DNA from: Escherichia coli | GTDB taxonomy: Bacteria; Pseudomonadota; Gammaproteobacteria; Enterobacterales; Enterobacteriaceae | NCBI RefSeq assembly: GCF_003334255.1 | Contig: NZ_QOWU01000043.1 | Strand: one strand, 5' to 3' | DNA length: 46,580 nt | Part shown: positions 30,204-31,562 of the stretch, one piece after another | How the letters are laid out: each line of letters starts with the position of its first letter | Position numbering within the stretch: the stretch's first letter is position 1 | Made by a program: the position numbers and the translations under genes | Notes under the pieces: model-generated | Told to the model about the DNA's origin: nothing | Seen by the model: the letters and a program-made list of their open reading frames with translations, nothing else | The model's database searches: none

Positions 30204-30971
30204 TCAAACTGTTAAGATGATAAATGTGGTAAATCTGTTGGTACTAACATAAAAACGTTTACGCCACAGGAACAGTCTGATCCACCGGTAACCCCGTCGC
30301 CGACGTTCGAGTGCCAGTTAGAGTAACGCGCACAGATAACTGAATGCAGTGCCCTGACAAAAAGGCCATCGTTCCTGTGACAGCTGGCAGCCTTCGTTTA
30401 ACTTCACTTAATCTGGCTCTTGGGGGCTTACCGAACAGATGACGTACATACGCCCGTTCAATTTTCCATTACTTATTGGAATGAACACCTGTAACCATTT
30501 TGTGCGGCATGTTAATCCATTAAAATATCTTACTGATTGGCAAATCATCTTCAATGACAGCTCATCATAGTTTTATATTCTATCCCTTACCCTTAAAACT
30601 TGTTTTTTTACTAGTCCATCACACAGCGCATTAAGACTATTCCTAACACTTCAGGGCAAAGTTCCTGACCAATATAAAATGCAAGTAAGAATTGAACGTT
30701 ATATTGCCAATAACCTTATGAAACCAAATGTCTTTTTCTTCTTATCAAAAAAGCAATATTTTCAGTTTTTCTAAATATTGACTTAACCATTGAATTCCTT
30801 TTCCGTTCACATATTGACACTCATCGGGAAAAAAACATAAATTTAAGCCCAATCGAAAATAATTAAACTTAATCTCGTTTAACCTTTATTGATATGTACT
30901 ACGTATCTTATTTACTTCCGGTTTACTAAGGAAACTGAATGCACCTGTAAAAATTACAGGTTTGGAAAGTA

Positions 30972-31562
30972 GTGACATGGCAAAGTGATTACAGTAGGGA
31001 CTATGAGGTTAAAAACCATATGGAATGTCAAAACCGTTCTGATAAATACATCTGGTCTCCCCATGACGCCTACTTCTATAAAGGACTATCTGAACTGATT
31101 GTGGATATCGACAGATTAATTTATCTATCGTTGGAGAAAATTAGAAAAGATTTCGTGTTTATCAATCTCAGTACGGATTCTTTATCTGAATTTATAAACC
31201 GTGATAATGAATGGTTATCCGCGGTAAAGGGGAAACAGGTCGTATTGATTGCGGCCAGAAAGTCAGAGGCCTTAGCAAATTATTGGTATTACAATAGCAA
31301 TATTAGGGGCGTGGTATACGCTGGACTGAGTCGTGATATTAGAAAAGAACTGGTCTATGTGATTAATGGCAGGTTCCTGAGAAAAGATATTAAGAAAGAT
31401 AAAATCACGGACCGGGAAATGGAAATTATCCGCATGACGGCCCAGGGAATGCAACCTAAATCGATTGCCAGAATTGAAAATTGTAGTGTGAAGACAGTGT
31501 ATACCCATCGGCGTAATGCTGAGGCCAAGCTGTACTCAAAAATATATAAGTTGGTTCAGTAA
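30972..31562 (+). CDS. ecpR: LuxR-family regulator EcpR (MatA)
   Basis: 196-aa ORF with GTG start; C-terminal LuxR-type HTH; an in-frame ATG at 31020 with better SD spacing is an alternative start. Confidence 0.85.

Follow-up and report, generated by a model that had tools for sequence, protein, structure and literature searches.

Where translation of the regulator gene ecpR (matA) begins in Escherichia coli, and what a perfect palindrome lying shortly upstream of it might do, are linked questions, as the position of the start codon decides whether the palindrome sits against the gene or well inside an untranslated leader. We examined them in a stretch of 46,580 nucleotides (contig NZ_QOWU01000043.1 of assembly GCF_003334255.1), referred to here as the window, in which the segment between 29.5 and 35.5 kb corresponds to the E. 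coli ykgM-ykgO / ykgL / ecpR(matA)-ecpABC region. A 196-codon open reading frame opened by a GTG codon extends from 30972 to 31562, and its codon 17 is an ATG (31020-31022). A sequence-only reading of the window had described a palindrome with 8-bp arms and a 3-nt loop that abuts the ecpR start, had offered it as either an autoregulatory operator or a translational control hairpin, and had suspected that the true start might be downstream of the GTG.

The coordinates given there for the dyad all check out on the sequence (Table 1). Ten nucleotides (TTGGAAAGTA) separate it from the GTG at 30972-30974, the purine-rich GGAAAG ending 2 nt 5' of that codon is present at 30964-30969, and the GAGG reported about 11 nt upstream of the in-frame ATG is found at 31005-31008 (11 nt away, or 10 nt when read as GAGGT). 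An AGG(U) within the 3' arm of the dyad, 10-11 nt upstream of the GTG, had been overlooked. A TAA triplet in frame with ecpR (30948-30950) falls inside the dyad, so that the GTG at 30972 is the sole possible ecpR start 5' of the ATG at 31020.

Table 1. Features of the ecpR upstream region and gene, in window coordinates
Feature	Position	Strand	Basis or remark
ecp promoter: -35 TTGACA (30814-30819), 18-nt spacer, -10 TAAATT (30838-30843)	30814..30843	+	10/12 consensus match
ecpRABCDE transcription start site (TSS)	30851	+	published position and RIL-seq 5' limit
ecpR 5' untranslated leader, 169 nt	30851..31019	+	TSS 30851 and start codon 31020
Dyad ACCTGTAA-AAA-TTACAGGT	30943..30961	+	perfect inverted repeat; leader RNA hairpin, +93..+111; RNA fold
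Dyad 5' arm ACCTGTAA	30943-30950	+	sequence inspection
Dyad loop AAA	between 30950 and 30954	+	sequence inspection
Dyad 3' arm TTACAGGT	30954-30961	+	sequence inspection
Best predicted Spot 42 pairing site (tentative)	30958..30978	+	duplex with Spot 42 nt 19-38, -19.3 kcal/mol
Small helix GUGACAU (30972-30978) / GUGAUUAC (30985-30992), contains the GTG	30972..30992	+	RNAalifold, 7 pairs
GTG and 15 codons, 'N-terminal extension' of the 196-aa model	30972..31019	+	most likely untranslated leader
Shine-Dalgarno GAGGU for the ATG start	31005..31009	+	locus comparison; anti-SD hybridisation -5.4 kcal/mol
ecpR (matA) coding sequence	31020..31562	+	180 aa, LuxR/GerE-type HTH regulator; RefSeq WP_001301257.1, NF047921, GerE domain

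The start codon of ecpR

The downstream ATG is not a new call, being already the start used by RefSeq/PGAP and NCBIfam. In every RefSeq/PGAP genome checked (K-12 EMG2, O157:H7, M217, four divergent lineages, RMDEC364 and E2348/69) the gene is annotated at 543 nt from the position matching 31020, and the sole genome examined that keeps the GTG is MG1655 (NC_000913.3), in which b0294 matA is annotated at 591 nt. The RefSeq/NCBIfam model of EcpR (NF047921, WP_001301257.1, 180 aa) has a start identical to the one favoured here, unlike the MG1655/GenBank model and the 2012 promoter paper, both of which number from the GTG. When the 196-aa model is searched with NF047921 (EcpR equivalog, 180 positions), profile positions 1-179 align with residues 17-195, with a score of 342 bits, above the curated cut-off of 300, and with the Met of ATG 31020 at profile position 1; a GerE domain is detected in the protein as well.

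A protein search returned 72 relatives of EcpR, the full-length ones being 175-180 aa long and 39-97% identical, and every full-length orthologue (from Klebsiella, Enterobacter, Pantoea and metagenomes) starts at a Met aligned to M17. As such starts are outputs of gene callers, the DNA of the non-E. coli loci was compared directly, using 13 non-redundant ecpR loci, with spacing counted over 17 loci. The scan of genome contigs for ecpR gave 8 loci, none of them from other Escherichia species, and two extra loci (L031 from an indel-ridden E. coli assembly and L032 from a K. pneumoniae-like assembly) contributed no new clade.

In all 13 non-E. coli loci, stop codons or frame shifts close the 16-codon extension, which cannot be translated into EcpR in any of them. 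At the position of the extension, K. pneumoniae-type leaders read GTG ACG TTG TAA and carry a 1-nt indel, the Enterobacter leader reads GTG ACA TTT TAA and those of L005 and L025 read GTA ACA TAG TAA; in the K. oxytoca group a TAA lies 3 codons 5' of the ecpR ATG. Eight of the 13 have no upstream in-frame ATG, GTG or TTG at all. An in-frame GTG is confined to E. coli, where the 16-codon frame is open in all lineages examined. The tract preceding the ATG is shared far more widely: GAGGT, GGGGT or GAGGA is found at a gap of 10 nt in 14 of 17 loci (the exceptions being 8 nt in K. indica, 11 nt in a paralogue and a deletion in L023), and the block GGACTATG(A/G)GGT, which positions this Shine-Dalgarno (SD) tract before the ATG, is conserved at the nucleotide level across loci.

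The window strain differs from O157:H7 by 1 synonymous and 2 non-synonymous substitutions in the extension (3/48 nt over 16 codons), compared with 9 synonymous and 5 non-synonymous substitutions (14/543 nt) in the 180-codon ecpR coding sequence; the pattern in the extension appears leader-like, with a density above that of the coding sequence, the counts being small. In strain RMDEC364 an IS1-associated rearrangement has replaced everything upstream of about 30983, with loss of the promoter, the dyad and the GTG; despite this, its ecpR is intact and is annotated from the ATG.

Initiation at the two codons was estimated with a simplified script of our own (hybridisation, spacing, start-codon and unfolding terms), the results of which serve for ranking only. 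The ATG scores +2.0 kcal/mol (GAGGU:ACCUC -5.4, spacing 10) and the GTG +8.8 kcal/mol, because the latter has a 3-nt anti-SD match only (the AGG(U) 10-11 nt upstream, which lies in the stem) and because the hairpin must melt for it to be used, at a cost of 9.0 kcal/mol. By this estimate the ATG is favoured about 20-fold, or about 7-fold with the O157 allele. Both starts score weak, and the 10-11 nt gap between SD and ATG exceeds the optimum.

The ATG at 31020 is very probably the (main) start of ecpR. Strong support for the suspected downstream start comes from the N-termini of orthologues, from the in-frame stops that relatives carry and from the conserved GAGG spacing, and also from the NCBIfam model, the RefSeq annotation and the initiation-energy estimate; our literature search found no experimental N-terminus or start-site mapping of EcpR. 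What the comparative DNA evidence (closed extension, fixed GAGG spacing) provides is a justification for the RefSeq start, not a new call. It supports correcting the 196-aa MG1655/UniProt-style model of EcpR/MatA to the RefSeq 180-aa form, which is of practical importance when this adhesion/motility regulator is expressed from constructs, tagged or studied structurally, and it sets the length of the leader at 169 nt.

Promoter, transcription start and leader helices

PMC10038029 places the ecp TSS 121 nt upstream of the GTG, which corresponds to position 30851 of the window, 8 nt past the -10 hexamer. The 5'-most read start in RIL-seq data from enteropathogenic E. coli (EPEC; PMC8550237 Table S3), at NC_011601 281896, maps to window position 30850. 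Promoter and TSS are those of the published ecp/mat region (Martinez-Santos et al. 2012; Lehti et al. 2012, 2013), in which control by EcpR/MatA, RcsB, H-NS and IHF acts at or upstream of the promoter; the leader dyad is not mentioned in the text searched. TTGACAC and TAAATT are kept in all E. coli-like leaders, namely those of E. coli, K. pneumoniae, Enterobacter and metagenomic relatives. The Cappable-seq supplements for EDL933 give primers and qPCR values and no TSS coordinate; salt-induced ecpR mRNA is amplified in qPCR with a primer placed at -8 with respect to the GTG.

With the TSS at 30851, the dyad occupies +93 to +111 of the 169-nt leader and, with the ATG at 31020 as the start, it does not abut ecpR. 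It ends 58 nt before this ATG and 43 nt before its SD, so that the description of a palindrome abutting the ecpR start fails.

Other helices in the leader are shared more widely. Among nine leaders folded together with RNAalifold, the small helix containing the GTG is kept in nearly all, the change from GTG to GTA in L005 turning a G.U pair into A-U. Such a helix would explain why the GTG is retained in relatives that are unable to start there. A second helix common to the nine leaders pairs CUAUG-GGUU (31001-31010) with AACC-AUAUGG (31014-23); it forms a weak local hairpin (31001-31023), separate from the dyad, that encloses both SD and AUG, with a folding energy of -6.2 kcal/mol in E. coli (z = -3.1) and of -0.7 to -7.0 elsewhere. 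Should ecpR translation be directly controlled at all, this local hairpin would be better placed to do so than the dyad.

Two other candidate elements of the leader were rejected. Long-range anti-SD pairing of 30869-30876 with GAGGUUAA is present in the single-sequence minimum free energy (MFE) fold and is not recovered by RNAalifold. A mini-ORF (ATG 30939-CAC-CTG-TAA), considered as a leader peptide whose translation would melt the hairpin, has its TAAGGA SD only in the K-12/window lineage and shows poor predicted initiation.

The dyad as a leader hairpin

The window contains a total of 17 perfect repeats with 8-bp arms and loops of 0-6 nt (12 of them distinct), against 5.7 expected from Markov shuffles, and the probability of at least one such dyad in the 768-bp, 37% GC intergenic region is 0.11. 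By this measure the dyad is only mildly unusual.

As RNA it folds into a hairpin of -8.3 kcal/mol (z = -3.0 relative to dinucleotide shuffles of its 29-nt context), and when the whole leader is folded (z of -2.0) this hairpin is recovered in the MFE as well as in the centroid structure. One half of the proposed translational control hairpin, the capacity to fold in the RNA, is thereby borne out; the other half, masking of the ribosome binding site (RBS), is not, as a hairpin ending at 30961 cannot occlude the RBS of the ORF translated from 31020, with its SD at 31005-31009. A terminator or attenuator was rejected as well, since no plus-strand terminator-like site is found in 30200-31700 and the stem, with 3/8 G-C pairs, is followed by UUUGG. 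The same interval (30200-31700) has no match in Rfam at E <= 1.

The dyad is perfect in seven of the eight sequenced E. coli leaders that were inspected directly. The exception is EPEC E2348/69, where a C to T change in the 3' arm (TTACAGGT to TTATAGGT) turns a G-C pair into G.U and leaves a hairpin of -6.3 kcal/mol; this allele, the only dyad variant found within E. coli, occurs in no more than 6 of some 5,000 genome records. Across 4,978 E. coli genomes, the surrounding 100-nt segment shows 95-100% identity, and the invariance of the dyad within the species does not reach significance (6 polymorphic sites in 100 nt, 0 in the 19 nt, P of about 0.28).

Beyond E. coli the dyad is degraded, both in Klebsiella and in Enterobacter leaders. 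K. pneumoniae has a partial dyad, GCCAGTAAA-C-TTTATAGGC (7/9), with the G-C to G.U change at the same position as in E2348/69. Pairing of the E. coli stem reaches 77% over nine leaders that represent five clades, a figure biased by the derivation of the structure from E. coli. A double change is seen at the outermost stem pair only (A-U to G-C), one further pair being either G-C or G.U; RNAalifold keeps just three GCC/GGC pairs of the stem, and covariation is almost nil. On these alignments, the dyad is perfect at the level of E. coli only, having been built up from a partial one in the ancestor. The G-C to G.U change in both E2348/69 and K. pneumoniae preserves RNA pairing and breaks DNA symmetry, a pattern that, with very few events to count, favours an RNA-level over a DNA-level reading.

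Internal stem-loops in the 5' untranslated regions of enterobacteria offer one comparison, being, like the dyad, short and A/U-rich, set in a long leader and clear of the RBS. The ompA 5' hairpin, a classic stabiliser, is 5'-terminal; the ecpR dyad hairpin, at +93, is internal.

The leader also has contacts with small RNAs. The matA/ecpR gene is repressed by Hfq in EPEC, and EPEC RIL-seq recovered chimeras between the leader and Spot 42 (spf), with 59 fragments, an odds ratio of 2.9 and p = 4e-5, in the unified library only (PMC8550237). Their RNA1 read starts lie at window positions 30850-30943, that is, between the TSS and the dyad's first base. Spot 42 is predicted to pair best with a segment that covers the 3' arm of the dyad, the GGAAAG and the GTG plus 6 nt, corresponding to -14..+7 relative to the GTG. 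Its pairing energy of -19.3 kcal/mol is equalled by 7.3% of shuffled leaders, opening of the two partners costs 12.5 + 6.6 kcal/mol, and the full-length Spot 42-leader duplex is no better than shuffles (z = -0.9). Hfq repression and Hfq chimeras with Spot 42 match what is seen in the Spot 42 regulon; the predicted ecpR site, however, is not at the RBS but 42-62 nt 5' of the real start, and the pairing is marginal. The link of Spot 42 and Hfq to the ecpR leader is only suggestive and is best treated as a lead.

Competing explanations

The explanation that seems to us, on balance, the probable one combines the ATG start with a hairpin in the leader RNA. The ecpR gene would be translated from ATG 31020 by way of the GAGGU at 31005-31009, yielding a 180-aa regulator, and the GTG at 30972 and the 15 codons that follow would be part of a 169-nt leader transcribed from the TTGACA-18-TAAATT promoter, their frame being open by chance and in E. 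coli only. The dyad would act, if at all, at the RNA level, as a stem-loop of 8 bp with an AAA loop (-8.3 kcal/mol), one among several small helices of an Hfq-bound leader and too far 5' to mask the real RBS. Effects of such a hairpin would likely be modest: it would shape the fold of the leader and hide the GTG region from ribosomes, and it could possibly gate the access of Hfq and of a small RNA (Spot 42) to the neighbouring segment 30958-30978. The data show the coordinates, the transcription of the dyad, the starts of the orthologues, the closure of the extension in relatives and the potential to fold; formation of the hairpin in vivo, and any regulatory consequence, are inferred. The dyad is a modest stem-loop of the leader, at the level of the species, and there are faint signs that it is constrained as RNA and lies near an Hfq/Spot 42 contact.

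Another possibility, which we hold to be rather doubtful, keeps the ATG start and takes the dyad for a functionless palindrome that arose recently by chance in an AT-rich leader. It agrees with the roughly 11% expectation for the intergenic region, with perfection in E. coli only, few substitutions being needed from a partial dyad such as that of K. pneumoniae, and with near-absent covariation, non-significant invariance within the species and the lack of an Rfam family. It does not predict that two independent changes at one stem position should both be G-C to G.U, nor the A-U to G-C change of the outer pair, which are what RNA-level constraint predicts, tiny as the numbers are; the most 3' of the RIL-seq read starts, which falls exactly on the dyad's first base, also counts against it. 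We regard as unlikely that the GTG is instead a genuine, perhaps additional, start in E. coli, giving a 196-aa isoform whose initiation is controlled by the hairpin, by Spot 42 pairing or by both. The frame open in every E. coli lineage examined, the use of this start by the MG1655 annotation and the original literature, an AGG(U) spaced from the GTG by the 10-11 nt that also separate GAGGU from the ATG, and a predicted Spot 42 site at the canonical position for repression by small RNAs, together with the observed Spot 42-leader chimeras, all speak for it. They are countered by an extension that is absent from, and cannot be encoded in, all orthologues, by a 3-nt SD match buried in the hairpin and its far poorer initiation estimate, by the excess of non-synonymous over synonymous changes and the raised substitution density of the extension, by the conserved helix, which explains retention of the GTG in relatives, and by a P of about 0.07 for the Spot 42 pairing.

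The dyad could also be a DNA operator for a dimeric HTH protein (EcpR, EcpR-RcsB or SdiA), perhaps a roadblock or other downstream site at +102, which we find very improbable. Its symmetry is a perfect twofold one with half-site centres 11 bp apart, EcpR is itself a LuxR/GerE-type HTH protein, and the outer 7 nt of both arms are identical to those of the V. fischeri lux box ACCTGTAGGATCGTACAGGT (PMC4444344), with which the dyad shares the half-sites ACCTGTA / TACAGGT as well as dyad symmetry. The V. fischeri box, however, is 20 bp long, with N10 between the triplets, and is centred at -42.5; the ecpR dyad, at 19 bp (CTG-N9-CAG), is 1 bp shorter, has its centre at +102, within the transcribed leader and neither at -42.5 nor inside the core promoter, and is not conserved, its CAG triplet reading TAG in one lineage (E2348/69). 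MatA acts with RcsB as a heteromer and would therefore be predicted to use asymmetric sites. The notion of an autoregulatory EcpR operator in particular is left unsupported by a dyad that lies downstream of the promoter and contains no TTCCT, that is degraded in other genera with ecpR and that loses its DNA symmetry in E2348/69. EcpR reportedly targets TTCCT boxes upstream of the ecp promoter, and in this region TTCCT is found on the plus strand at 30640, 30662 and 30795 and on the minus strand at 30929, with none inside the dyad. Klebsiella and Enterobacter, in which the dyad is degraded, both carry ecpR, and they also carry SdiA. The dyad sequence was not found in the literature searched, and that literature gave no link between SdiA and the ecpR leader, the terms co-occurring only in reviews and gene lists.

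A narrower form, in which the E. coli leader has gained a putative lux-box-like operator (ACCTGTA-N5-TACAGGT) bound by SdiA or another LuxR-family dimer and acting as a roadblock at +102, is likewise very improbable; if true, acyl-homoserine-lactone sensing or EcpR itself would gate the switch between adhesion and motility. In a related, less exotic variant, equally a long shot, the hairpin with its 3' flank would be a docking module for Spot 42 and Hfq, which would tie ECP fimbriation to catabolite repression. Boxes for other regulators were considered and set aside. The LexA (SOS) box has the consensus CTGT-N8-ACAG, and the dyad reads CTGT-N7-ACAG, with spacing off by one; the spacing of CRP- and TyrR-type boxes mismatches that of the dyad too.

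A leader that is long, Hfq-bound and folded into several small helices makes the control of ecpR after transcription (Hfq, Spot 42, RprA) worth attention, and the dyad is one candidate element in such control. The contacts with RprA lie elsewhere: the ecpR::RprA chimeras of the EPEC RIL-seq data (18 fragments, p = 2e-8; PMC8550237) map 217-320 nt inside the coding sequence and are unrelated to the dyad.

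Helices over the ecpR start

The Shine-Dalgarno sequence and favoured ATG start of ecpR (31020) lie within a local hairpin that reaches -6.2 kcal/mol in E. coli (z = -3.1) and is found by RNAalifold in all nine of the E. coli-like leaders folded jointly; outside E. coli it is weak or variable (-0.7 to -7.0 kcal/mol). A smaller helix, GUGACAU/GUGAUUAC, encloses the disputed upstream GTG and is preserved in nearly all of the nine leaders. At L005, one of the ecpR loci compared, the GTG has become GTA, a change that turns a G.U pair of this helix into A-U. The helix may be the reason why a "GTG" persists where its use as a start codon is impossible. 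In both the single-sequence minimum free energy and centroid folds of the E. coli leader, the 5'-proximal UUAAUCUC (30869-30876) is paired with GAGGUUAA, the Shine-Dalgarno sequence (31005-31012), a pairing not found in the multi-species consensus fold of the leader.

Features in and around the ecpR leader (window coordinates)
Feature	Position	Strand	Remarks
Palindrome GTTATGTTATAACATAAC, perfect	29503-29520		directly upstream of ykgM (rpmE2)
TTCCT pentamers	30640, 30662, 30795	+	upstream of ecp promoter
TTCCT pentamer	30929	-	just 5' of the dyad
Mini-ORF ATG(30939) CAC CTG TAA, three codons	30928-30950		TAAGGA before ATG; overlaps 5' arm of the dyad; in frame with GTG
Small helix GUGACAU/GUGAUUAC	30972-30978 with 30985-30992		contains disputed GTG
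Local hairpin CUAUG-GGUU/AACC-AUAUGG	31001-31023		contains ecpR GAGG Shine-Dalgarno and ATG start
RprA chimera region in ecpR coding sequence	~31237-31340		NC_011601 281406-281509; EPEC RIL-seq (PMC8550237)
Inverted repeat AGCAGGGG-TAGCC-CCCCTGCT, perfect, G+C-rich	32240-32260		just past ecpA stop codon (32224), before ecpB

Short reading frames and repeats near the dyad

The mini-ORF that overlaps the dyad (the perfect 8-bp inverted repeat of the leader) is missing outside E. coli, and its Shine-Dalgarno sequence is confined to the K-12/window lineage, AAAGA or AAAAA being found in other lineages. A second short frame arises in most of the E. coli alleles that are not of the A/B1 type (L002, L018-L020 and L033), where AAAGTG is replaced by AAAATG at 30985-30987; this yields an ATG in the +1 frame whose ORF overlaps the ecpR start, and which is sometimes chosen by gene callers, as in the wrongly called proteins P0003 and P0007, among others. 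The dyad itself is flanked by GGAAAC (30930-30935) and GGAAAG (30964-30969), which form a loose direct repeat. The positions of the three plus-strand TTCCT pentamers are consistent with the EcpR boxes reported in a 2012 paper.

Structural variants of ecpR loci

In L030 (E. coli RMDEC364; positions 1048-1800 of that locus), an IS1 element with a neighbouring deletion stands in place of the ecp promoter, the dyad, the GTG and the larger part of the leader; rclC is truncated, ykgM, ykgO and ykgL are lost, and only ~37 nt of native sequence precede ecpR. In ecpR of the K. pneumoniae type, the A-tract following ATGGAATAT at codons 4-5 is A3 in L016, A5 in L022 and A4 in L029 and L023. This change in length frameshifts ecpR in L016 and L022, and may reflect either genuine on/off variation of the gene or a mistake in assembling the homopolymer. 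L023 has also lost the ecpR Shine-Dalgarno sequence through a 12-nt deletion. A divergent ecp locus, with EcpR 84-86% identical to that of E. coli in amino acids (~83% in nucleotides), is carried by L005 and L025-L027, which come from SCPM-O-B-8794, a genome whose label reads E. coli, and from human gut metagenomes. The organism may be wrongly assigned, or the locus may be a second ecp cluster gained by horizontal transfer.

Other palindromes and RprA chimeras

The palindrome upstream of ykgM agrees with the Zur operator of ykgM-ykgO, an operon of ribosomal-protein paralogues under zinc regulation. The inverted repeat between ecpA and ecpB may serve as an attenuator within the operon or as a hairpin that stabilises the mRNA, and as such could determine how far EcpA exceeds the downstream products.

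Within the ecpR coding region, significant chimeras with RprA, an Rcs-induced sRNA, were recovered by RIL-seq in EPEC (18 fragments, p = 2e-8; PMC8550237). As the mat/ecp operon is also co-activated by RcsB together with MatA, these data hint at a mixed feed-forward circuit.
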